A DNA stretch of 28,792 bases from a virus (taxonomy: Duplodnaviria; Heunggongvirae; Uroviricota; Caudoviricetes): positions 1-28,792 of IMG/VR virus record IMGVR_UViG_2778261570_000004, one strand, 5' to 3'. A model generated the notes under the pieces. The model was given only the letters and a program-made list of their open reading frames with translations, was not told where the DNA came from and did not search any database. Every line of letters begins with the position of its first letter. The stretch's first letter is position 1. Position numbers and translations under genes: made by a program. This document shows, in pieces, positions 6,231 through 27,709 of this stretch.

Positions 6231-6338
6231 TGTTAGATGAATGGAATTAATTTTCTAATATAACCAACTTTTTGCCAGTCTATACAGAAATAACATTCTC
6301 ATTATCATCCCCTCGGTCATTTCCTGCCCGGGGGATTA

Positions 6339-10723: not shown

Positions 10724-10744
10724 TTAGTTTTCTAACATAAAATT
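10724..10744. promoter_or_regulatory. operator-like motif copy 4 (reverse orientation, TTTAGTTTTCTAACATAAAAT)
   Basis: Same motif family; directly upstream of the 345-aa gene. Confidence 0.45.
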
Positions 10745-16953: not shown

Positions 16954-17040
16954 TATACATTGAAAAGGCATAGTTTGTGAAAGCGGGGTTTGTAGGCGCG
17001 CCACGCTGGGGGCTAATCACATTTCTCCCCCATCTTGCCG

Positions 17041-17292
17041 TTATTTTTTTGGTGCATCCTCGTTCTGATACACCGGATCGCTCCCTTTTGGCAACTGGAG
17101 GCTTAACTGCCGGTAGTGCCGTAGCCGTTCCATGAAATAGGCGCGCAGGTTTTCCGGTTGCTCACGGGCCACCTGCTCTGCAATCACAGGTATATTCAGC
17201 CGTTCTTTGTAAGCAACGCCGCTGGCGGCAAGGTCTACGTTCACCTTGTCTCGCTCTTCCTGGCTTTTAGCTGCTATATTTCGATCTGACAC
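17041..17292 (-). CDS. hot: Hot, homolog of DNA polymerase III theta subunit
   Basis: [43 protein letters not shown] matches the HolE/theta family. Confidence 0.75.
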
Positions 17293-17324
17293 AAGAAACC
17301 TCCAGGAGTTAGTGGATCAGGCAC

Positions 17325-17675
17325 ATGCACAATAACGTTCTCAATGTTAGCCGTTCAATTCAGACAATCAGAGACTGCACCAGTGTGGTGGCATCAATCC
17401 CATTGCGAAACAGCATAGACGAACTGCAAATTCGTGTATTGAATCCGAATCAGGCTAATAAGCAATTGCGCTTTATTTTGACGCTGAAAAGTGAAACAGA
17501 GGGGATAAAGCACAGCGTAAAAGTGTTTTCTGAGGCCATTCTGCTTAATGGGAAGCTCCGGCATCTGGTAAGGCCAGAACGTCAATATCCTGACGTCCTG
17601 GCGCGTGAAAAAGACCTTCTTTCTGAAGTTCAGGATAGGGTGATCGATTTCGTCAAATGCTATCCCCTGCATTGA
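17325..17675 (+). CDS. hypothetical protein (116 aa), weakly supported
   Basis: ORF in the 367-bp gap between the leftward operon and hot; no convincing SD. Confidence 0.3.
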   Translation: MHNNVLNVSRSIQTIRDCTSVVASIPLRNSIDELQIRVLNPNQANKQLRFILTLKSETEGIKHSVKVFSEAILLNGKLRHLVRPERQYPDVLAREKDLLSEVQDRVIDFVKCYPLH

Positions 17676-17944
17676 GGGCAGGTGTTCCCTTCCGCAAAGT
17701 AGGGAAAATTGCTATCAAGTTCATCACACCATCTGCGATGGTCGTAGCACCAAAACGCCTCCCACGGTGCACGGAAATACTTCATCCACCAGGACACTCG
17801 ATCAGGTATATCTGCTGGTGGCAGTTCTTCTGGCAATAATTTGCCTGATAATTCCCTTTCCGCCCGCGACAGCATTTTTTTGAGGCTCGCGTTCTCTTTT
17901 TCAAGCTCATCTACGCGCACCTGTAATTCAGCTTTCGTTGGCAT
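17660..17944 (-). CDS. hypothetical small protein with C-terminal CPQC motif (about 94 aa)
   Basis: Start moved to the internal ATG preceded by GAGGTGG; N-terminal coiled-coil-like segment. Confidence 0.45.
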   Translation of the reverse strand: MPTKAELQVRVDELEKENASLKKMLSRAERELSGKLLPEELPPADIPDRVSWWMKYFRAPWEAFWCYDHRRWCDELDSNFPYFAEGNTCPQCRG

Positions 17945-18944
17945 GGTCCACCTCATGCTTTTCAGCCACCAGCGGCAATAAAGCCCTGGCCATCTTATGA
18001 ACCAATAGTGCATCAATAATGCCAAGCGTATGCCCCGGCTTAATGTTTAATGCCGCCTCAAGGCGACACCTTTCCAGACCACTTTTCTCGGCTTGTTTAT
18101 GATGATCTGGTGTAATAACGTCGCCCAAAACACGGCTAATTCTTTCTCGTAATTGCTGGGTGCCAGCACACTTGATCGCTGTATCGTGGAGACGGTTAAC
18201 CAGTTCGCGATAAACATGCGGCTTAATGCGGATACGTTCACCGGTGACGCCCTTTCCTGGCGCTGGCACCGAACTATCCGGAATATCCGGATAGTTGCCT
18301 GCCAGTCTACGCAACACAGCCTTAACGGCCTCAATACGGTCATCATCGCAACTTTCCGCCGTATCTATGCGGTCGAGCATGATGATGGCGTTATCAATAT
18401 CAGGATTGCCGGTCCACTCATTACCGCGATTGGATTCGGCAGCCTGGTTACCAGATGCGGGTTGATTGTCGGCCTTACCCAGCCTGTCGTCGCTGCATGA
18501 ATGCCCTTCCAGCCAGGCCAATGCTTGTCGCATGAAATACGCAATATGTTTGCCGTGGTAATCGTCTTCATCGATGTGAAAAGCGATACTGCGGATGTAT
18601 TCAATTGCGTTTTCGATGGCCTCTAACGCTATCGGCGCTGGCGGAGTGGTATATAATTTTCGACATTTGTATATCCAACCGGCATGGTCAGGCGTGTCTG
18701 TAAAGCGCAAATCGTCTTCGTAGCACTCACGACTTCGTTCTTTCCATTCCGTCCACGGAACACCGCTATTCCAAGTGGGGCGAGTGCAGGACTGATACAG
18801 AACAGGCTCTGCTTCCAGCGATGCCAGAGCAATTCGTGCCAGTTCTTCCGCTTCTTCTGCTGGCAGTACAACGTTGCTACCAGGTCCGTATGTTTCGCGC
18901 CACTGTTTGATTGTCAGCAGTCGCTCTTTGGTTATAGTGGTCAT
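17928..18944 (-). CDS. hypothetical protein (338 aa)
   Basis: ORF; C-terminal segment AGTQQLRERISRVL resembles a segment of the 25916 protein. Confidence 0.6.
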   Translation of the reverse strand: MTTITKERLLTIKQWRETYGPGSNVVLPAEEAEELARIALASLEAEPVLYQSCTRPTWNSGVPWTEWKERSRECYEDDLRFTDTPDHAGWIYKCRKLYTTPPAPIALEAIENAIEYIRSIAFHIDEDDYHGKHIAYFMRQALAWLEGHSCSDDRLGKADNQPASGNQAAESNRGNEWTGNPDIDNAIIMLDRIDTAESCDDDRIEAVKAVLRRLAGNYPDIPDSSVPAPGKGVTGERIRIKPHVYRELVNRLHDTAIKCAGTQQLRERISRVLGDVITPDHHKQAEKSGLERCRLEAALNIKPGHTLGIIDALLVHKMARALLPLVAEKHEVDHANES

Positions 18945-19150
18945 TTATTAATCCTCAAAACTTTATGCCCGGGTGCAAAAGCACGCGTTTTGTCTTTGCT
19001 TATTCGCCAGCCATCCTTACGCGCCTCTTTTGCACAGCCAGTCCATGACGTACCGATATATTCACCGAAGTCTGGCGTTTGATATTTACCATTTGTACAC
19101 TGGCGACAATCACAATAGAGATGCATTGTGTAACTTGCGGCAATAGCCAT
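18941..19150 (-). CDS. small Cys-containing protein (about 69 aa)
   Basis: ORF with CDCRQC motif; start chosen just after upstream stop. Confidence 0.45.
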   Translation of the reverse strand: MAIAASYTMHLYCDCRQCTNGKYQTPDFGEYIGTSWTGCAKEARKDGWRISKDKTRAFAPGHKVLRINK

Positions 19151-19151
19151 A

Positions 19152-19850
19152 TCAGTCTCCTTTGATGCCAATGTTTACAGCCTGGCAAGCCTCTTTGAGC
19201 ACCCAGTCAACCGCGTCTTTCCATGCTCCGGTTTCGACTGGCGGATTCTCACGCTTAACCTGTTCATAAAAGCGCACGGCTTTAACCAGTCCTTCCGGTA
19301 CTACTGGTGATGGCTGTTTAGCTTCTAAATCAGCAATTCTGTCAACCACGGCATCTACGGCATCTGAAAAGCCGAACCAGTTACTCCACTCCGGCCTATC
19401 CCCGGTTGCTGCAAAGTACATATCAGCTAAAGCAGACTCAGCATGGTCACGCTCGTTAATGAGTTGCTCTTCGCTTTTCTCCAGTTCAGCAATACGCTTA
19501 CTTCCATCCGAGAGAACACCTTCGTAATACTCGCGCTGCTCGTTGAGTTTTGATTTTGTCTCCTCAAGCTCAACTCTCAGCTTCCCAACCGTAAGAGCAA
19601 TATCCTCGTTCTCCTGGTCGCGGCGTTTTATGTATTGCTGGTTTCTTTCCCGTTCATCCAGTAGTGCCAGCACGGTTTCTGGTCCGGCCAGAAATTTGAA
19701 GGCGTTGAGCGCATCAATATCCACACCGTAATCTTTAAGTTCCTGTTCGCTTATCAGATCATCATCAACTGGCAACATTAACAGGCGTTCCATTGCCGGA
19801 ATTGCACGTTCTGCCGCCTCACGCAGTGCCTGATAGTTAATTTTGGTCAT
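19152..19850 (-). CDS. Ead/Ea22-like coiled-coil protein, paralog 1
   Basis: N-terminal NYQALREAAERA motif as recalled for the Ead/Ea22 family. Confidence 0.6.
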   Translation of the reverse strand: MTKINYQALREAAERAIPAMERLLMLPVDDDLISEQELKDYGVDIDALNAFKFLAGPETVLALLDERERNQQYIKRRDQENEDIALTVGKLRVELEETKSKLNEQREYYEGVLSDGSKRIAELEKSEEQLINERDHAESALADMYFAATGDRPEWSNWFGFSDAVDAVVDRIADLEAKQPSPVVPEGLVKAVRFYEQVKRENPPVETGAWKDAVDWVLKEACQAVNIGIKGD

Positions 19851-19851
19851 A

Positions 19852-20151
19852 TCACATCACCCTGAAGCCGTTGCATTTACGTAAAAAATCGCAGATATAG
19901 CCCTTCATTTTTTCGTGCCAATCTCGATCATTCCCATTGCACCAACCATCAGGTGGAGTCCAGTTTTCTATCAGAGCAGCCATTTTCTTTGCTTTCGCCG
20001 GAGTAGCTGTTGCGGTATCGCAGTAATGACGAGTGTCAACCAACGTATCCATACCATCGATATCAAGTACGCAAAACCATGTGTGATTCGGCATTTCAAC
20101 AGATGGTATTTGTTGCCCGCGTCGACGTTTATCAATAAGACATACAGTCAC
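19852..20151 (-). CDS. hypothetical protein (99 aa)
   Basis: ORF, tightly packed in operon. Confidence 0.5.
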   Translation of the reverse strand: MTVCLIDKRRRGQQIPSVEMPNHTWFCVLDIDGMDTLVDTRHYCDTATATPAKAKKMAALIENWTPPDGWCNGNDRDWHEKMKGYICDFLRKCNGFRVM

Positions 20152-20828
20152 TGGTTGCCTCCTTTGCGAAGCTGGGCAGCAAAGTCAACTAACCACTCAG
20201 TCATTTCAACCTTCCCTACCAGGTCTGAACCAGGGTGCATACAGCAATCACTCTGCGCCGCTTTGAAATCCTTATACTCATATTCTTGGGCCACCAGATT
20301 TTTTGCAGCTTCTATAGCAGCATCCACCCCCTGCGCCCGAACTTCAGCCAGGAAAGCATCAGTGGTTGGCGTTTCAGGTATCTGTCTCCTCATCCGTTCT
20401 ATTGCATGATTGAACCCGAAGTCTTCCGCGAGAGATACGTCATCCATATTGTCATTGTCATCCTCAATATCCCGTGATTCTGGAATTGCAGACTTTATTC
20501 CCGCATTCTCCGCTGCCAGCGCCGCGCACTTGGCTTCAAGAGCGGCAACCACTTCCTGATGGTCTTTGTACTTAACGTATGAGCCGGAGATGTCATCACC
20601 TTCGGTGTTTAGCCATGCGTCATTGCAATTCACTGCGTAGGTTCTGATGCTGATGCTCTCCCGCCCCTGACAGACGCCAGGCCAGTCAATAAAGTATCCG
20701 CAATGCCTACCCTCAGACGTGCGCGCAGGATAAATGCCGTTATGACCCGGCAAAATATATGCTACCCATTCATCTTGCGTTGCCTGCTCCGCTGCCTCGC
20801 GCAACTCCTGATAGTTAGTTTCACTCAC
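20148..20828 (-). CDS. Ead/Ea22-like protein, paralog 2
   Basis: NYQELREAAEQATQDEW N-terminus; shares CAALAAENAG, TDAFLAEVRAQGV and AAQLRKGG segments with paralogs. Confidence 0.6.
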   Translation of the reverse strand: MSETNYQELREAAEQATQDEWVAYILPGHNGIYPARTSEGRHCGYFIDWPGVCQGRESISIRTYAVNCNDAWLNTEGDDISGSYVKYKDHQEVVAALEAKCAALAAENAGIKSAIPESRDIEDDNDNMDDVSLAEDFGFNHAIERMRRQIPETPTTDAFLAEVRAQGVDAAIEAAKNLVAQEYEYKDFKAAQSDCCMHPGSDLVGKVEMTEWLVDFAAQLRKGGNQ

Positions 20829-21015
20829 TATCTGCTCCTTCCGCTTTCTCTGCTTTATTCGCCATGATTTCCAGCTTTTGTGCTGCTGATGCCGCTAACA
20901 TTTGAAATTCTTCATCTGTTTCAACTGGAATTGGTACAAACCTGACTCCAATTTGAGCAAGGCTATGCGCCATCTCTAGACTTGCTCTTAACTCTGCTGG
21001 TGAGGCTTTATTCAT
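20821..21015 (-). CDS. hypothetical small protein (64 aa)
   Basis: ORF overlapping neighbour by 8 nt. Confidence 0.4.
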   Translation of the reverse strand: MNKASPAELRASLEMAHSLAQIGVRFVPIPVETDEEFQMLAASAAQKLEIMANKAEKAEGADSE

Positions 21016-21111
21016 TTGGCTTCCTCCTTCCGATACATCATGATTACCAGGCCTCCCTTTGTAGTAATGCGGATGGTGCTGCCTGGCTCCATGCTCATGC
21101 CTTTATCCCAA

Positions 21112-22107
21112 TCAGTTATTAAACGTGATTACTCCGCGCTCGATGGCGAAGTCAAAAAGCTGGTTAGCGGCTACGTAAAGGCGTATGCCATGTGCTTTTT
21201 CCCATGCCCGGACATCGTTTTCTGCGCTTCTGGCGCAGTCATCGCAAAGAGGAACAGCCCAGCGGTCGTGTTCGTTTAACGAGCGGGCGCGGTACATGAA
21301 CGGGTGGTTAACTTTGCCACCGCATCCGATGCACGGACGAGAAACCACAAACCGGAGATAAGCCGGGCTTTTACCGAGGACCGCTTTTGGTCGGCGCATA
21401 TAAAGCAGGCCGGAATCCTCATCTACAGACAGGTTGACGATCTGCTCTGCGGTTATGTCCACCAGCTCGCGGGTACTGTGCTCCCAGGTGATATCTGATT
21501 CTTTCAGCGTACCGGTAGGGATTTCAGTTTTTGGCTGACAAAATGCAATGCGACCGGCTTCATCTGGTAGCTCATCTTTCAGATTCCGGCGAATGGCCCA
21601 AAAAGTGAGTTCAACCATGCTCAGATCGCGATCTGGCGGAAGTTTTAACTCGCTGGCAGCCCAGTTCATAATCCAGTTGGCGCGATTCAGTGACAGTTGG
21701 TCTTCCAGCTTGCCGTATCCCTTCATCATGTATTCCGCATCATGCTTCCAGCACAGGCGAACGGCAGAACCGTTATAGAAATGGGTGGTTAGCTGGTGGC
21801 TGCAATCGCGCTTATCATGCGCCTGGCAATCGTGAATGTTGGTGCTAACCCAGTGAACGAGAGAATCCTCACCACCTAACGCGTTAAATACGCGCTCACT
21901 TTGAAAAAAGGGTGCCAGTGACTGGTTGGTAACCAGTGAATAATTCAGGTCAACGACACCATCAGGGGTGTTTTCAGCCTGTTCACGCGGCAATGGGGAT
22001 ATAAGAAAACGACGTCCTGCGCCGATGTAATTGCTGGTGGGCTTATCTACAGGAAAGACAGCCACACCAGTTTCATTTACGACATATGGGGTGATTATTG
22101 CACTCAT
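21112..22107 (-). CDS. hypothetical protein with C-terminal Cys cluster (331 aa)
   Basis: CIGCGG...PLCDDC putative zinc-binding C-terminus. Confidence 0.6.
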   Translation of the reverse strand: MSAIITPYVVNETGVAVFPVDKPTSNYIGAGRRFLISPLPREQAENTPDGVVDLNYSLVTNQSLAPFFQSERVFNALGGEDSLVHWVSTNIHDCQAHDKRDCSHQLTTHFYNGSAVRLCWKHDAEYMMKGYGKLEDQLSLNRANWIMNWAASELKLPPDRDLSMVELTFWAIRRNLKDELPDEAGRIAFCQPKTEIPTGTLKESDITWEHSTRELVDITAEQIVNLSVDEDSGLLYMRRPKAVLGKSPAYLRFVVSRPCIGCGGKVNHPFMYRARSLNEHDRWAVPLCDDCARSAENDVRAWEKAHGIRLYVAANQLFDFAIERGVITFNN

Positions 22108-22146
22108 AATGCATACCGACTCTGTTTTGTTCCGAGCGGTAAAATA

Positions 22147-22187
22147 ATATGTTAGAAAACTAAAATCAATGTTCTAACGTAATTTTG
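22147..22187. promoter_or_regulatory. operator-like motif pair (ATATGTTAGAAAACTAAAAT plus ATGTTCTAACGTAATTTTG)
   Basis: Two motif copies, GTTAGAA and inverted TTCTAAC, in the intergenic gap inside the leftward operon. Confidence 0.45.
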
Positions 22188-22205
22188 AGTGCGTAAATGA
22201 TTTGA

Positions 22206-22898
22206 TCAGACTTTAAGCTGCCCTCCCTTCACCTGCATTAGCGTCAGATTTCCGCAAAAAACCGCACCCGTGTCTATGTAGTGCTGATTCCAGTATGCTT
22301 TTGGTCTTCGTACCGGTGTGTGCCCAAAGATAAAGCGATCTGCGCCTGTGATTTCTCCACCAATGCCATCTATCGAATCACCGACGCGACTGCGCGACCA
22401 GACAACATCAAAAAGCGACACATCCTTACCGAACTGGTACTCTCCACCTGGATAGTCGGCATGGGCTATAACGATAGTTTCATGCCCGGTGTTCAACTCA
22501 ATGATATAGGGCAGACGTCTTACCAACTCCACCAGCGCCCTGGCTAATATTTCCTGATCAGCGTCCAGCATGAAGAACCATTGTCCGCCATTCATTAGCC
22601 AGTTATTCACGTTGCCATCAGGACTTAACGCATCGATCATTAATCGCTCGTGGTTTCCCATAACTGACCGAAACCAGGGCATCTGCAATAGCTCCAGGCA
22701 TTCAACATTTTCGGTGCCGCGATCGATAAGGTCGCCAACCGATATCAGTAAATCCTGCGCCGGGTCAAAATCCACACGATGGAGTTCGGACATCAGTCTG
22801 GTGTAGCAACCATGCAGATCACCAACAACCCATATGTTTCTGTAGCCAGAACCATCAATACGGCTATATAAATTCACTTCATGCATAGCCTGGATCAT
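22206..22898 (-). CDS. Ser/Thr protein phosphatase (lambda-PPase / calcineurin-like metallophosphoesterase)
   Basis: GDLHG, GDLIDRG and GNHE motifs; start set at the ATGA overlap with the upstream gene. Confidence 0.85.
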
Positions 22899-23206
22899 GC
22901 GGCAACCTTCTCCCGCAGCCAGATACAAACTGGACCATCTTCAGTGTCATGGATAGAGCCAACAAACCAGCCTTCACCCTCTGGTCGCTCCGGTTCCCAG
23001 GCGGCAATATCGGGTCCAGCTGCGTCCAGATCAAAATCATCTTCATCCATACTGCGAATAGTCCACTGAAGATTATTTTCCTTCATCCAGGCGTCAAATT
23101 CCTCAGTGGAAATATATTCACGACCTGCGCAAAACTTCTCATACTCCGGATGTGTCCAGCAGCCATATTCATCACGTTCTACCGGCATTTCTTTAATGAT
23201 GCTCAC
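22895..23206 (-). CDS. hypothetical acidic protein (103 aa)
   Basis: ORF, coupled. Confidence 0.5.
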
Positions 23207-23427
23207 TCTTCATCCTCCAAGTCGGCAACGGCCTCCATCACATCAGAACCGCGAATAACCTCAAAAGCACGGCAGGCCATTTCAAACACCTGTTGTTCTT
23301 GCGGATGCGGTGACTCCCAATACTTAAAACCAGGTCGATGCTCGTAACCCATCATGGAATAAAAATCGCCAGCAAGTTCAATCGCGGCATCAACAAGTTC
23401 GCGATTTGTCATCGTCTGTTCTGTCAT
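23203..23427 (-). CDS. hypothetical protein (74 aa)
   Basis: ORF, coupled. Confidence 0.45.
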   Translation of the reverse strand: MTEQTMTNRELVDAAIELAGDFYSMMGYEHRPGFKYWESPHPQEQQVFEMACRAFEVIRGSDVMEAVADLEDEE

Positions 23428-23699
23428 TTGGTTTTCTCCTGTCTGAACATCACTATCATCAGGTCGCCTTTTGTCGCTATTCTGGCTGTTGTGCCTGGTT
23501 CAATGCGGCTAAGCTCAAATGCGTCATAGAACGCTTCTAATGCCTTCTGGCGTAGTTCCTGTTTGCGCCGTTTTTTCCACTCTTTTAGGAAAATGGAACC
23601 CAGCCATCGCCAGGTACGGGACATGATGTAAAGCCAACCGAAAAGTGCCAGACCGGTATTTAGGGCCGTATCGATTGTTATCGTGGTGTCGATATTCAC
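23424..23699 (-). CDS. small membrane protein (91 aa)
   Basis: Hydrophobic segment LALFGWLYIMS followed by basic stretch. Confidence 0.45.
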   Translation of the reverse strand: MNIDTTITIDTALNTGLALFGWLYIMSRTWRWLGSIFLKEWKKRRKQELRQKALEAFYDAFELSRIEPGTTARIATKGDLMIVMFRQEKTK

Positions 23700-23944
23700 T
23701 GTGGTGGCTCCTGCTTTTCTGCCTTCAATACCATGCGAGAACCATCATCCAGCTCCCAATTAATTTCACCGCCTTCTGCCATGACAAGATGCCAAACGAG
23801 TTGTGCGGCCTCGTTGGTTACATCGCGACCGCGATCATTGCCGACACGACGTTTTGTTCCATCCCCTAAGTCACGCATTTTTGCCAACACGATGGTTTTT
23901 GATAGCGGTGAAAAACCAAGCTGTAGTCGTGCTGAATTGCTCAC
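23696..23944 (-). CDS. hypothetical protein (82 aa)
   Basis: ORF, coupled. Confidence 0.45.
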   Translation of the reverse strand: MSNSARLQLGFSPLSKTIVLAKMRDLGDGTKRRVGNDRGRDVTNEAAQLVWHLVMAEGGEINWELDDGSRMVLKAEKQEPPQ

Positions 23945-24606
23945 TGTTTCCCTCCCTTGCGAAGCTGGGCGGCTAACTCGTCACATATGTGCGTCAAGGA
24001 GCAAAGTTTGATTGATGGATGTTCGCGCATCATCTCAACCCCCTGCGCCCGTACTTCAGCTAGGAAAGCGTCGGTGGCTGGCATATTTCCTGTTGCCTTC
24101 ATGGCCTCCAAAATAACCAGAACGCCATCTCTCCCAACCTCCTCACAGATAACCTCAGTGTTGTCGCCAACAACATCGCAGAATGCCTGAACTGCTTTAC
24201 GAGCCAGCTCATTCTCCGCCACCAGCGCCGCGCGATTACCCTCCAGCTCTGCAATGCGCTGTTTTGCGGTATCAAGTTCAATCGATAATTTTTCCAACTG
24301 CTCTTTATGCTTCTTATATTCCTGATATGCGTGCCAGGACTGACCTTTGCGCACACTATCAGTAATATCAGTAATCTGTTCTGGTGTTAGCGTAGTCAGT
24401 GGCTGTGCTGGGAAAATCAGCACTTTCCCGGAATCCCAATCAAAACCAGCGTGAATTGACTGAACCTCAACTGAGGGTGTTGAACCAATGCTGCCAGGCG
24501 AATGAACAACGATCGTTACATCCATATCGCGACGATGGCTGTGGTTGTTGGACAAAATACGATTCACCAACTCAGAAAATTTGGAGAATTTCATGCGGAG
24601 CCTCAA
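23941..24606 (-). CDS. protein with Ea22-like C-terminal module, paralog 3
   Basis: C-terminal TDAFLAEVRAQGV...AAQLRKGGKQ shared with the 20148 protein. Confidence 0.55.
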   Translation of the reverse strand: MRLRMKFSKFSELVNRILSNNHSHRRDMDVTIVVHSPGSIGSTPSVEVQSIHAGFDWDSGKVLIFPAQPLTTLTPEQITDITDSVRKGQSWHAYQEYKKHKEQLEKLSIELDTAKQRIAELEGNRAALVAENELARKAVQAFCDVVGDNTEVICEEVGRDGVLVILEAMKATGNMPATDAFLAEVRAQGVEMMREHPSIKLCSLTHICDELAAQLRKGGKQ

Positions 24607-25013
24607 TATGCAAAATAGACCGTTGCCACGCCGTTATAGTGATCAAACGATACGGCGTTTACTTCATAGCTGGCAGGGAGCTTCGAGCCGAGAACATATC
24701 CGGGCCACGTTTTCCATGGAATTTCTCTGCTCTCACTATCCCCATATACCGTACATCCAAGTGAACCTACAGCCTCGTCAGAACGTTTGCCGCATGTTAT
24801 GAAACCTATATTTTTCTTGCCGGTCTTAATGGCGATTGGGTGAACACTGGCTGATGCATTGGCAGCACGCTGTGACTGTTGGTTTGCGATATTCGCAGAG
24901 TTCGCAGCAGCTACAGCAGCCGTGGTCGCGGCGGTAGATGCCACAATAACTGCTGAAGCCTGCGCCTGTTGGGTAATGGTCAGCAATGCCGCCACAAAAA
25001 TCATCTTCTTCAC
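24603..25013 (-). CDS. secreted protein with signal peptide (136 aa)
   Basis: MKKMIFVAALLTITQQAQA signal-like N-terminus, Ala/Thr-rich linker. Confidence 0.55.
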   Translation of the reverse strand: MKKMIFVAALLTITQQAQASAVIVASTAATTAAVAAANSANIANQQSQRAANASASVHPIAIKTGKKNIGFITCGKRSDEAVGSLGCTVYGDSESREIPWKTWPGYVLGSKLPASYEVNAVSFDHYNGVATVYFAY

Positions 25014-25612
25014 TTGTCAGCTCCTTTGCGAATCTGTTCCGCCCATTCTTCAAGGGATTTCTCCGCATATTCACCGGACAGGCCATCAATCGGGTGCGGT
25101 TCATTAGCCAACTCTTCTTTCGCTGACAGAATCATGCGCGTAACGTCGAAAACTTCACGTAAAGACTTATTGATAAATCCGTGGTTGAAAGCAGCAGCAA
25201 GACGGCTGGCGGTATAGTTAATCCCCTCGTTGCGTGCTTCCGAACGAATTTCAGCAAGGCATTTGCGAAACTCGGAAACGTACTGTTCGACGCTCATTCC
25301 CCAGCTAAGTGGACATTCATTGAATGTTTCGCCTTCGTGCTCTTCATCAGGTAGCTCTTTGGTAAAGAACTCACGTTCAATGGCGTGGAGTGTGTCAGCA
25401 AAACGACGTAAGTTACTCAAACCTGTCGTAATGGAGAATTCAGGAGCATCACATCCGACGCCCATCTGCTGATAAACGGCGGTTTTGAAGGCCTTAAGCC
25501 CCGCATTCTCCGCCGCCAGCGCAGCACACGCTTTCTCAAGTCGGGAAATTTCCGTTACATACTCAGCGTTACGCTCTGCCAGTTGTGCGGGCGTTAAACC
25601 TTCAGACTTCAT
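25010..25612 (-). CDS. coiled-coil protein sharing Ea22-like segment, paralog 4
   Basis: CAALAAENAGLK segment shared with the 20148 protein. Confidence 0.55.
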   Translation of the reverse strand: MKSEGLTPAQLAERNAEYVTEISRLEKACAALAAENAGLKAFKTAVYQQMGVGCDAPEFSITTGLSNLRRFADTLHAIEREFFTKELPDEEHEGETFNECPLSWGMSVEQYVSEFRKCLAEIRSEARNEGINYTASRLAAAFNHGFINKSLREVFDVTRMILSAKEELANEPHPIDGLSGEYAEKSLEEWAEQIRKGADK

Positions 25613-25919
25613 ACACTCTCCTTTCGAAATAAACGTACTGATTAATCATGCCCAGGGGCATTTCGAGTTTTTCCGCGATCTCACGGCGGGGAACACCACA
25701 CTGATGAAGCTGCCGTGCCAGTTCTATATCGCTCTGCCGGTATTTGGCTGACGGATGAAAGTCTCCTTTCAGAATCATGCTGATCCCCAACTCCCGCGCT
25801 TTAGTCCTGACGGCATCACCGGTACGACCGATCAGCTTCCCAATACTCTCGACCGTCATAGTTCCGGCGCACTGGCGGAGTATCATGATTTCTGCCCTTC
25901 CCCATCCCCGCCAGCTCAC
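25602..25919 (-). CDS. small HTH DNA-binding protein (105 aa)
   Basis: Two HTH-like segments (SIGKLIGRTGDAVRTKARELGI, IELARQLHQCGVPRREIAEKL). Confidence 0.5.
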   Translation of the reverse strand: MSWRGWGRAEIMILRQCAGTMTVESIGKLIGRTGDAVRTKARELGISMILKGDFHPSAKYRQSDIELARQLHQCGVPRREIAEKLEMPLGMINQYVYFERRVYEV

Positions 25920-26527
25920 GCAGAACTCCTTCTAACCAAAAGAACGCCATCTTCAGAAACAACGTTGCAGGACTTCAGGTAATTCATTGCCTCTTTCGGT
26001 AATGGATTCTTTGGATCGGCGTTTGCCAGGGATTTCGATAACCTCATGATAAATTTGATCATTACCTTCTGGCGGAGCTTGTGCTCATGAGATAAAGAAA
26101 GGTAATAGGAAATGGTATGGGCTAAACGCTCACGAAGCTGTTCTGTGCCGTGATATACAGCAGCGATATCACGCAGTGCATTGACCAGTTCCCGGTAAAT
26201 ATGCAGAGCAACCTGGCATTCAATGTTGGTTGGTGACTCATAAATTACAGTCAGCCCCAGCTTTTCAGCCAGCGCGTGCTCTGCACGAGCACCAATCGAT
26301 TCCTCCCATCGATTGAGCAAGTAGATCGCATCAGCAGAACGCACCATTGCCAGGCAAATATCCATGTATTCACTCTGACAAAGGCCACCAGGTAACACAG
26401 CTGGATTCAGAACGATATGCCCTTCAGCCATCAGCTCACTCGCTTTCGTATTAAACGCCGCACGGTTGTAATCTGGATAACCAGTCATCGGCCCCGCGAT
26501 GTAAATTTTCAAAACACGTTTCACCAT
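25916..26527 (-). CDS. DUF4406 / nucleoside 2-deoxyribosyltransferase-like domain protein
   Basis: KIYIAGPMTG...W.ES.GA..E pattern; start set at the ATG coupled to the upstream micro-ORF (track ORF extends to 26554). Confidence 0.6.
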   Translation of the reverse strand: MVKRVLKIYIAGPMTGYPDYNRAAFNTKASELMAEGHIVLNPAVLPGGLCQSEYMDICLAMVRSADAIYLLNRWEESIGARAEHALAEKLGLTVIYESPTNIECQVALHIYRELVNALRDIAAVYHGTEQLRERLAHTISYYLSLSHEHKLRQKVMIKFIMRLSKSLANADPKNPLPKEAMNYLKSCNVVSEDGVLLVRRSSA

Positions 26528-26682
26528 CAAAATTTCCCCAAAATCGTGACGCAAAACATCAGCACGGCAAAAAGCTCAATACCAAGTTCAAGTAGCGCCA
26601 ACGCCCCGAAAAACAGCACATAGAACAGGCCAATCTCATTCACAGATGGCTGGTGGATCGCACTTAAAGCTATAAGCATCAT
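26527..26682 (-). CDS. 51-aa hydrophobic peptide, first gene of the leftward operon
   Basis: GGAGG 5 nt upstream of ATG; TGATG coupling to next gene; below track cutoff. Confidence 0.35.
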   Translation of the reverse strand: MMLIALSAIHQPSVNEIGLFYVLFFGALALLELGIELFAVLMFCVTILGKF

Positions 26683-26720
26683 GTCCTCCAAACATTTATC
26701 AGTGATGATATTAATGTTTT

Positions 26721-26757
26721 GTGTTAGAAAATCAATTTTGAATATCTAACTATTTTG
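26721..26757. promoter_or_regulatory. operator-like motif pair in divergent promoter region
   Basis: GTGTTAGAAAATCAATTTT plus inverted ATCTAAC; between the leftward operon and the Ref-like gene. Confidence 0.45.
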
Positions 26758-26799
26758 ATCAATCATAGAAAAATCGTTGAAAAGTAAGAGACTGCCATC

Positions 26800-27378
26800 A
26801 TGCAGAAACAGAGTTATTGGGAGAAACAGAGACAAAAAGCCATGCAAAAATTGGCTGACCCGGCCTGGCGAGAGGAACAAAGGGCAAAGCGCCTTCAACA
26901 AGCTCAACGCCAGCAGCAGCGAGCGAGAGAAAAGGCCGCATCGCCTGAATATCGGCAAAAGAAAAATGAAAAAGCAAAGCAATATGAACAGCGGAGAAAA
27001 GATAAAGCTGTATCCGCTCCGCCCAAAAAAACACGCACGTCACGCGGCCTGAAAGGCAGATCACTCACAGCCGATGAACGCCGGATACAGACCGCTATCG
27101 GTACTCTCCCCTGCATTGCCTGCCATATTCACGGGCAACATAGCCCAGTGGTATCCCTGCACCATATCTTCGGGAGAACGGCAGAGAACGCGCATAAATA
27201 TGTCCTCCCTTTGTGTAAATGGCACCACCAGTACGCAGCGCCAGCCGAGGTCCGAGAACAATATCCCTGGCTGGTCCCTGTTCATGCTGACGGAAAAATA
27301 GGCGGAAAAGCAGATTTCATGCGGCACAATGCCGATGAAATGACGTTGTATCAGATGGCGATTGAATTGATAAATTAG
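26800..27378 (+). CDS. ref: Ref-like protein (basic disordered N-terminus plus Cys/His-rich HNH-like C-terminal domain)
   Basis: N-terminal 85 aa rich in K/R/Q; C-terminal CIACHIHGQH...HHIFGR...CKWHHQ; operator-like motifs on both sides. Confidence 0.5.
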   Translation: MQKQSYWEKQRQKAMQKLADPAWREEQRAKRLQQAQRQQQRAREKAASPEYRQKKNEKAKQYEQRRKDKAVSAPPKKTRTSRGLKGRSLTADERRIQTAIGTLPCIACHIHGQHSPVVSLHHIFGRTAENAHKYVLPLCKWHHQYAAPAEVREQYPWLVPVHADGKIGGKADFMRHNADEMTLYQMAIELIN

Positions 27379-27393
27379 TTTTCTAACATTTTA
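27373..27393. promoter_or_regulatory. operator-like motif copy (reverse orientation)
   Basis: AAATTAGTTTTCTAACATTTT overlapping the stop of the Ref-like gene. Confidence 0.4.
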
Positions 27394-27709
27394 AGTTGAA
27401 TTGTAAATTTCTCCGATGTACATTCACTACCGATTGGCACACCGGTCAACTTTTTGAGACAAACTGTTTAGTTTTTCGTATTATTGCCGCCGCTATACCT
27501 ATGGCGGTGCAATATAGGTGGCTGAAAAGCCCCCGTTGACTCACGGTGTTCCAGCCTTTATTGCGCCGCCACCAGACCGTGGAACAGTCGATGGCGGCTC
27601 CGAAAGCAAGGAGTCACTACACTATGAACAGCTACTGTCTTTTCCCATCACTCGTTGTCCGCCACTCACGCGATAATCTGCATTCTTTACTCGCGCTGGG
27701 GGTGTCAAA

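Follow-up and report, generated by a model that had tools for sequence, protein, structure and literature searches.

Ea22-like genes of a D6-like plasmid prophage as likely mosaics joined at short conserved blocks, one of which may double as a translational-coupling junction

We analyzed a 28,792-nucleotide (nt) stretch of Caudoviricetes DNA (IMG/VR virus record IMGVR_UViG_2778261570_000004, positions 1 to 28,792; the window) that carries four genes, here called A to D, of the Ead/Ea22-like type. The records closest to the window were phage D6 (51% covered at 94.9% identity) and Escherichia coli plasmids of ~90 kb, and any single record covered at most 82% of the region; matching places numbered ~1,180 on plasmids and ~6,900 on chromosomes. 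D6, these plasmids, and the window have a common order of anchors (Ref nuclease, DUF4406, ppp phosphatase, DUF968/pdcB, and then hot and humD), and on the basis of this shared order the window is assigned to a D6-like (P1-related) plasmid prophage of E. coli. Genes A to D sit within the variable accessory region of this element, in a densely packed series of minus-strand genes (17000 to 27400), and the cluster is placed between ref/DUF4406 and hot/humD. All four open reading frames (ORFs) named in the original prediction, an earlier reading of the letters alone, were present on the minus strand. In the list that follows, N, CC, T, and Ct denote short DNA blocks that recur among the genes: N at the 5′ end, CC where the coiled-coil helix ends, T where the C-terminal helical domain starts, and Ct at the 3′ end.

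19152 to 19850, minus strand: gene A, 232 amino acids (aa); true Ea22 homologue with N-block, a central coiled coil like that of lambda, and a C-terminal domain of its own; last residues IKGD, then stop
20148 to 20828, minus strand: gene B, 226 aa; has every one of the blocks (N, CC, T, and Ct)
23941 to 24606, minus strand: gene C, 221 aa; start TTG at 24606 or ATG at 24594; its own beta-rich head (phrog_6026), then a CC variant, T, and Ct
25010 to 25612, minus strand: gene D, 200 aa; short head, CC block, T variant, and long helical tail; ends AEQIRKGADK and stop
19852 to 20151, minus strand: DUF7739 gene, between the Ct block of B and the N-block of A; Pfam DUF7739, 1.5e-21

Genes A to D belong to the Ead/Ea22-like family of temperate-phage accessory proteins, although they do so unequally. 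Pfam family PF13935 (Ead_Ea22; gathering threshold, 27 bits) was passed by A (126.2 bits, 1.8e-36) and B (92.4 bits, 4.8e-26), and neither C nor D, which are without the N-terminal NYQxLREAAE region, had an Ead_Ea22 match at an E value of ≤0.01. All four matched phrog_368 (C, 1.4e-57; D, 9.6e-29); B, C, and D additionally matched phrog_614 and phrog_492 (D to phrog_614, 8e-44), and A also matched phrog_250. A further match of A to phrog_4790 ("RecBCD inhibitor," 1.7e-7) spans only a coiled-coil/linker stretch. The tie of C and D to A and B runs solely through phrog_368, 614, and 492 and through a BLASTP match between B and C (28% over 225 aa, 2.5e-12), the only pair alignable end to end; similarity between B and D is limited to 20 aa and that between A and B to the first 16 residues. 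In the aligned part, A and lambda Ea22 are 58% identical, and their central coiled coils are almost the same. B is 100% identical to NCBI entries named ead/Ea22-like family protein on ~90- to 108-kb plasmids and on chromosomes, and the C orthologue in plasmid pGF4-B carries an ead/Ea22-like annotation. The earlier description of four paralogous Ead/Ea22-like genes therefore stands for a related mosaic coiled-coil family, all in phrog_368, and narrows to A and B where the Pfam family is concerned. Both the multicopy mosaic Ea22-like family and the genes themselves were already known, the latter from databases.

None of the protein motifs named in the original prediction is common to all four genes. 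NYQxLREAAE is found in A and B only; B and D have CAALAAENAG, of which C has the variant RAALVAENEL. B and C share TDAFLAEVRAQGV, and D has its weak variant CLAEIRSEARNEG. AAQLRKGG is likewise found in B and C; D ends in AEQIRKGADK and A in IGIKGD. The links form a network of A-B, B-C, B-D, and C-D. At the DNA level, the T blocks of B and C (20323-20370 and 24035-24082) match over 48 nt at 87.5%, their 3′ ends (20148-20186 and 23941-23979; Ct) over 39 nt at 85%, the CC blocks of B and D (20493-20529 and 25493-25529) over 37 nt at 84%, the CC blocks of B and C (20504-20548 and 24210-24254) over 45 nt at 76%, and the 5′ ends of A and B (19802-19843 and 20780-20821; N) over 42 nt at 76%. When positions 17000 to 27000 were compared with themselves, the top five internal DNA matches (36 to 58 bits) all linked members of this set of four genes, and the best of 30 triplet shuffles reached 30 bits; since the internal matches outscore every shuffle, the reported repeats are real and nonrandom. 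A 15-mer singled out earlier, CTTGCGAAGCTGGGC, is exact in C and matches B at 14 of 15 positions, and 14 nt is the longest exact run between any two copies. Each protein is laid out as a variable head, CC block, variable linker, T block, variable tail, and Ct block, to which A and B add an N-block at the start.

The blocks are listed below together with breakpoints, defined as ends of high-scoring segment pairs (HSPs) in a blastn comparison of the window with 83 loci (80 viral contigs with ppp as the anchor, together with D6 and two plasmids); L011 is a locus of another element.

19802 to 19850, minus strand: N-block of A, MTKINYQALREAAE; 76% identical to 20780-20821; breakpoint hotspot at 19849 in 17 loci
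20780 to 20828, minus strand: N-block of B, MSETNYQELREAAE; breakpoint hotspot at 20829 in 16 loci; in relatives often directly after a Ct block
20493 to 20548, minus strand: CC block of B, LEAKCAALAAENAG; end of the coiled-coil helix; matches 24210-24254 and 25493-25548; breakpoints at 20501-20504
24210 to 24254, minus strand: CC block of C, LEGNRAALVAEN; strongest breakpoint hotspot (24210, in 26 loci); one border of a B-type patch in L011
25493 to 25548, minus strand: CC block of D, LEKACAALAAENAG; breakpoints at 25494-25503
20323 to 20370, minus strand: T block of B, TTDAFLAEVRAQGV; the C-terminal helical domain starts here; a segment 97.4% identical to phage CUS-3 ends here
24035 to 24082, minus strand: T block of C, ATDAFLAEVRAQGV; breakpoints at 24031-24042; other border of the L011 patch
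20148 to 20186, minus strand: Ct block of B, DFAAQLRKGGNQ and stop; Shine-Dalgarno (SD) sequence AAAGGAGG at 20165-20158; GTG of the DUF7739 gene at 20151-20149 overlaps the stop TGA at 20150-20148
23941 to 23979, minus strand: Ct block of C, ELAAQLRKGGKQ and stop; SD AAGGGAGG at 23958-23951; GTG of a DUF7446 gene at 23944-23942 overlaps the stop
25010 to 25048, minus strand: Ct block of D, EWAEQIRKGADK and stop; SD AAAGGAG at 25027-25021; GTG of a 136-aa gene at 25013-25011 overlaps the stop; breakpoints at 25021-25022 in 13 loci
19148 to 19175, minus strand: 3′ junction of A (IGIKGD and stop); SD AAAGGAG at 19163-19157, stop at 19154-19152, and ATG of the next gene (MAIAASYT) at 19150-19148

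Breakpoints were concentrated at the blocks. Counting an HSP end as near a block if it fell within 12 nt, 214 of 350 HSP ends and 33 of 51 distinct end clusters inside A to D lay near shared blocks, compared with an expected 27.5% (P = 3.5e-8 on clusters, an optimistic value). The P22-like phage CUS-3 (locus L206, 1129 to 1939) shares window positions 19567 to 20377, an 811-nt cassette at 97.4% identity that comprises the tail of B from the T block, the DUF7739 gene, and the head of A up to the coiled coil. From TDAFLAEVRAQGV to the stop, CUS-3 HkaH and B are 100% identical, and upstream they differ; the gene next but one after hkaH matches A for 96 residues and diverges beyond. In CUS-3 the DUF7739 gene moves with its flanking half-genes. 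There were also many matches to Shiga toxin (Stx) phages, at 90 to 98%. Crossover products predicted from the window paralogues were found in other loci at 92 to 96% identity with at least 120 nt on each side, namely, B/C exchanges at the T and CC blocks (both orientations of each), C/D exchanges at the CC block, and B/D and C/D exchanges at the Ct block. In L011, the gene in the C slot, with unchanged neighbors, consists of a C head, a B linker, and a C tail, and the patch borders are exactly the CC and T blocks. The mosaic shuffling proposed earlier is thus borne out across the phage population, both by the breakpoint enrichment and by natural chimeras at CC, T, and Ct blocks.

These observations are consistent with previous work describing temperate-phage mosaics as products of homology-driven, divergence-tolerant exchange that leaves traces of homology at the borders (De Paepe et al. 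2014, PMC3945230). Fragments of >90% identity edged by weaker homology, as described there, were found in the CUS-3 segment and the L011 patch. In the recent mosaics reported by that study, the partners came from one group alone, either lambda-like or P1-P2-Mu, and never from both. The 811 nt shared with CUS-3 are a clear case of between-group exchange, of a P1-group plasmid prophage with a P22-like integrated prophage, and P1/D6-type phage-plasmids and lambdoid or P22-like prophages have very recent DNA in common.

Copy number and arrangement varied widely among the relatives. A phmmer search of the comparison set with A to D as queries recovered 153 ORFs (124 distinct Ea22-like proteins) in 58 of the 83 loci, with one to six copies per locus, all on the ppp strand and with reassorted cassettes. 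Copies lay on both sides of ppp in D6-like loci and solely downstream of ppp in P1-like loci. Blocks occurred as N only, N+CC+T+Ct, CC+T, CC+Ct, T+Ct, or Ct only. When the 18 distinct proteins with CC, T, and Ct were cut at these blocks, 7 types of head, 7 of linker, and 6 of tail were found, joined in 15 combinations; four-gamete violations numbered 4 for head by tail and 1 for head by linker, and the tail cassette of D was found behind B-type heads in other elements. B itself had 592 matches in a library of 1.84 billion representatives; among the best 150, about 8 matched end to end, and the rest covered residues 1 to 57, 60 to 115, ~93 to 180, or ~138 to 226. We consider it likely that A to D are Ea22-like mosaics built by cassette exchange at conserved blocks and that the Ct block doubles as a portable coupling junction. 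The short blocks would act as joints for exchange among phages and prophages, including between genes in different slots of the region, through homology-driven, divergence-tolerant recombination in which recombination enzymes would take part, followed by selection for in-frame functional chimeras.

A separate form of B was seen in some relatives (L014, 12509-13101; L017, 4887-5581), where the B-type gene is split in two: one ORF has ~60 aa and the other starts MSIRT. The split point is an ATGA overlap within a GCATCAGCATCAG repeat, with its window counterpart at ~20650-20680 (B residues ~50 to 60), where a breakpoint hotspot (20676, 10 loci) also lies. The split form is common, as ~30 of the best 150 representatives start at B residue 60.

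Whether the blocks also serve as live substrates for homologous recombination among the four copies of the present operon, generating deletions, duplications, and chimeras within the element, is another matter. Copy numbers of one to six in relatives, truncated Ea22-like pseudogenes in plasmid pPSS-08-1_2, the appearance of slot-typical cassettes in other slots, and the gene for a Ref-type RecA-dependent nuclease that adjoins the cluster would all fit such activity. RecA-dependent exchange in E. coli usually needs ~23 to 27 bp of identity. Perfect identity between the window copies is 9 to 14 nt at longest, below this usual minimal processing segment, which counts against live recombination within the operon. 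Within single loci the median longest exact run was 10 to 13 nt. Synonymous sites also differ inside the window blocks, including T and CC. Moreover, all four blocks were less alike within an element than between elements (0.70 versus 0.75 for CC, 0.72 versus 0.76 for T, 0.73 versus 0.76 for N, and 0.72 versus 0.76 for Ct), and 464 to 491 of 500 label permutations reached or exceeded the observed mean. Gene conversion within the element was rejected because coresident blocks are less alike than blocks from different elements. The chimeras that were found are patch replacements that retain ppp and the neighboring genes rather than deletions. We therefore regard live recombination among the four copies as unlikely. 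The window copies are old and diverged and are not actively recombining with each other, given at most 14 nt of perfect identity and synonymous differences inside the blocks. The earlier view of the blocks as recombination substrates applies to the phage population, where breakpoints and chimeras attest to it; for the present operon, where identity is short and homogenization absent, it is mistaken or at best unsupported. Because coresident copies are not homogenized, the shuffling is a population-level process of relaxed recombination, including between slot lineages.

The positions of the blocks also correspond to the predicted structure of the proteins. An AlphaFold2 model of B built with 60 sequences has a helix at residues 6 to 15, a coiled-coil helix at 87 to 114 (predicted local distance difference test [pLDDT], ~90), and a helical C-terminal domain (CTD) at 154 to 221 (pLDDT, >90), together with an additional, poorly modeled head of ~70 aa; a single-sequence model was unusable (pLDDT, 45.7). 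Since the T block marks the beginning of the modeled CTD and the Ct helix its end, the blocks coincide with structural boundaries. It might be argued from this that the genes arose by ancient duplication and drift and that the blocks were kept solely by purifying selection on protein motifs, with no recombination. The synonymous differences between the T and CC blocks of the window copies agree with such plain divergence, as does the fact that the blocks fall where the coiled coil ends and at the first and last CTD helices. It would leave unaccounted for, however, the 97 to 100% identical cassettes that abut unrelated sequence, the four-gamete violations, and the clustering of breakpoints. Plain divergence is largely refuted by the abutting cassettes, the four-gamete violations, and the L011 chimera, and we hold it to be very improbable.

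The lambda-type architecture of short N terminus, central coiled coil, and separate CTD was found in B by the model and in A by alignment to the lambda coiled coil. Foldseek comparison of the B model with PDB and BFVD returned nothing at an E value of <1, a PDB sequence search with all four proteins gave no meaningful match, and PADLOC and NCBIfam gave only coiled-coil noise and no defense-system match; these searches pointed to no function for any domain. Lambda Ea22 is tetrameric at full length with a dimeric CTD and is prolysogenic, and contact with host factors has been proposed for its variable CTD (PMC10834534). By analogy, A to D are most likely oligomeric coiled-coil adaptors that present variable domains to host targets.

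At the 3′ block, an SD-like sequence lies within the last codons of all four genes (A, AAAGGAGA; B, AAAGGAGG; C, AAGGGAGG; D, AAAGGAG), and in all four the start of the next gene overlaps the stop (GTGA) or comes one base later (TGAtATG). Among 83 distinct Ea22-like 3′ tails, 40 were of the [LI]RKGGxQ-stop type (type 1). In these, Arg was encoded by five synonymous codons (CGC, 24; CGA, 7; CGT, 4; AGA, 1; AGG, 2), Lys was AAA in 35 of 35, Gly was GGA in 38 of 40 compared with 21% GGA elsewhere in the same genes (P = 1.7e-23, again optimistic), and the stop was GTGA or ATGA in all 40. Another 22 tails were of the IKG(G)E-stop type, with GGA in 21 of 22 and GAG in 22 of 22, followed by TGAnATG, TAATG, or TAGTG. 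The invariant, rare GGA and AAA beside a freely varying Arg codon indicate selection at the nucleotide level and not only at the protein level, a further point against plain divergence. A scan of all viral contigs for the lambda-type block ATTCGCATCAAAGGAGAGTGA gave 117 usable instances; ATG or GTG stood exactly one base past the stop in 114 (29 of 30 contexts), followed by ~30 different N-terminal 8-mers from perhaps 20 gene types. The gene downstream of A also follows a lambda-type block in other phages.

In the literature, all Ea22 proteins are reported to end in a +GE tripeptide of unexplained significance (Dydecka et al., PMC7093339), and a 2024 nuclear magnetic resonance paper gives no explanation of the motif either (PMC10834534). 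The C termini here fit a basic-Gly-acidic/Gly motif (A, KGD; B, KGGNQ; C, KGGKQ; D, KGADK), and among the relatives a +GE-type motif occurred in the last six residues at 29 of 56 Ea22-like junctions versus 31 of 681 other ORFs. The last helix of the B model ends at R221, and the K-G-G-N-Q tail is unstructured, with the SD codons just past the last predicted helix. The Ct block would thus perform double duty, the K-G-G/E codons being AAAGGAG(G), the SD of the next gene. With the GTG or ATG of the next gene overlapping or abutting the stop, the block reads as a portable translational-coupling junction, the coupling itself being predicted from sequence. On the simplest explanation, the +GE motif would be what results when the ribosome-binding site of a coupled downstream gene is translated in the Ea22 frame. 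Such an SD/stop-start junction explains the 3′ block better than a role as recombination substrate alone. This offers a simple, testable account of a conserved K/R-G-E terminus left unexplained in the literature, and structure-function work on Ea22 should not presume a protein role for that terminus.

In relatives, the Ct block and N-block are often directly adjacent; in the window the DUF7739 gene lies between them. One could go further and propose that the Ct/N junction (CGCAAAGGAGGnnnnCAGTGA followed directly by a start, often that of an N-block) is a selected "plug-and-play" adaptor and that the region is an integron-like cassette acceptor without an integrase, served by relaxed phage recombinases and possibly by the Ref nuclease. 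Almost any accessory gene recombined behind an Ea22-like gene would then be translated at once. We regard a selected adaptor of this kind as quite unlikely.

Several points weigh against our preferred reading of cassette exchange at blocks with a coupling junction at the 3′ end. Breakpoint hotspots also occur outside the listed blocks (19555-19564, 19669-19682, 20676, and 25258), and part of the clustering of breakpoints at the blocks could stem from selection for functional chimeras and not from a preference for crossover there. The distinct tails and the loci are phylogenetically nonindependent, and the P values are optimistic. In addition, the lambda ea22 3′ block lacks a following start: GATCGG stands in place of nATG, and the next gene (ea8.5) is 190 nt away. 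This 3′ end (L085, 1048-1074; record, ~29847-29873) is the same GGCATTCGCATCAAAGGAGAGTGA block as in P1/D6-like and other lambdoid copies, and such absence of a start was seen in 3 of the 117 sampled instances. Lambda is thus an exception to the SD idea rather than the positive control for which it was considered. The lambda block appears to be a decayed coupling junction; being without a start, it implies that the block can outlive its coupling partner and that a protein-level role of K-G-E is possible.

The cluster was originally described as one operon, which is doubtful. A 14-mer, TTAGTTTTCTAACA, occurs eight times in the window with up to two mismatches (0.12 expected). Every copy stands in a gap between gene blocks and points the same way as the genes downstream of it; the positions are as follows:

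730-743, 1980-1993, 2136-2149, 6247-6260, 10724-10737, 22150-22163, 26722-26735, and 27375-27388: 14-mer TTAGTTTTCTAACA

One of the copies occupies the gap of 99 nt that separates ppp from the DUF968 gene, and a second is found upstream of the DUF4406 gene; this placement suggests two transcription units in the cluster. The 14-mer at 22150 is flanked by TTGATT and TATTAT/TATTTT hexamers. A P1-type late promoter was rejected, as neither the P1 -22 box nor the C1 operator of the curated P1 record matches convincingly; the 14-mer is a candidate repressor operator or promoter element of D6-type phages.

Several neighboring genes deserve mention. The Ref-type RecA-dependent nuclease gene (26800-27378, plus strand; PF16786, 7.4e-35) is divergent from the Ea22-rich cluster that it adjoins. 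P1 Ref raises recombination, and a tie between the Ref nuclease and the mosaicism of the cluster is speculation. Between D and C lies a 136-aa gene (24603-25013, minus strand; phrog_8805, no Pfam match) whose N terminus, MKKMIFVAALLTITQQAQASA, resembles a signal peptide; the gene may be a moron within the cluster with a secreted or periplasmic product. A 338-aa protein (17928-18944, minus strand) without a Pfam match shares a ~50-residue module with the DUF4406 protein (25916-26554, minus strand), HxYRELVNxLxDxAxxxxGTxQLRERxxxxx, at 42% identity (E value, 3e-9), a second case of otherwise unrelated genes sharing a module, here at opposite ends of the cluster. In the ORF-finder output, the 338-aa ORF overlaps the ORF at 17660-18025 (minus strand) by 98 nt; the listed start of the latter, a 121-aa coiled-coil-like ORF, is probably too early, with the true start further in at MPTKAELQ.

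The importance of the finding is limited, although one compact region illustrates the cassette assembly of temperate-phage accessory genes; the SD/coupling account of the terminus is a small fresh addition, and the remaining mosaicism is known phage biology. A resembles lambda Ea22 (exo-xis region; PF13935) in its N-terminal helix motif and in a central coiled coil that is nearly identical, and the three-part architecture of short N terminus, coiled coil, and variable CTD is common to both, as is a K-G-E/D C terminus on the same DNA block, ATCAAAGGAGA. In contrast, the setting here is a P1/D6-like plasmid prophage and not the early pL-driven exo-xis region, the window has four copies where lambda has one, the CTDs differ (no sequence match to the solved lambda CTD), and the window junctions have an overlapping or abutting start, which the lambda 3′ block is without. 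Ea22 proteins of the Stx phages 933W, Phi24B, and P27 likewise have diverse N- and C-terminal regions around a conserved coiled coil and a +GE terminus; the papers on them (PMC7093339 and PMC10834534) treat one ea22 per phage and leave +GE unexplained, whereas the window has several coresident paralogues in which the motif coincides with an SD/stop-start junction. CUS-3 hkaH/ECRS218_0058/ECRS218_0059 resembles the window through the 811-nt cassette at 97.4% but differs in the head of HkaH and the tail of 0059 (DUF551-like) and belongs to an integrated lambdoid prophage with erf. Phage D6 (orf92 and orf100, ead/Ea22-like) and the D6-like E. coli plasmids are the same type of element, with the same flanking anchors (DUF4406, ppp, DUF968/pdcB, hot, and humD) and strand, and differ in copy number: two in D6, three in pGF4-B, four (two of them truncated) in pPSS-08-1_2, and four intact copies in the window.

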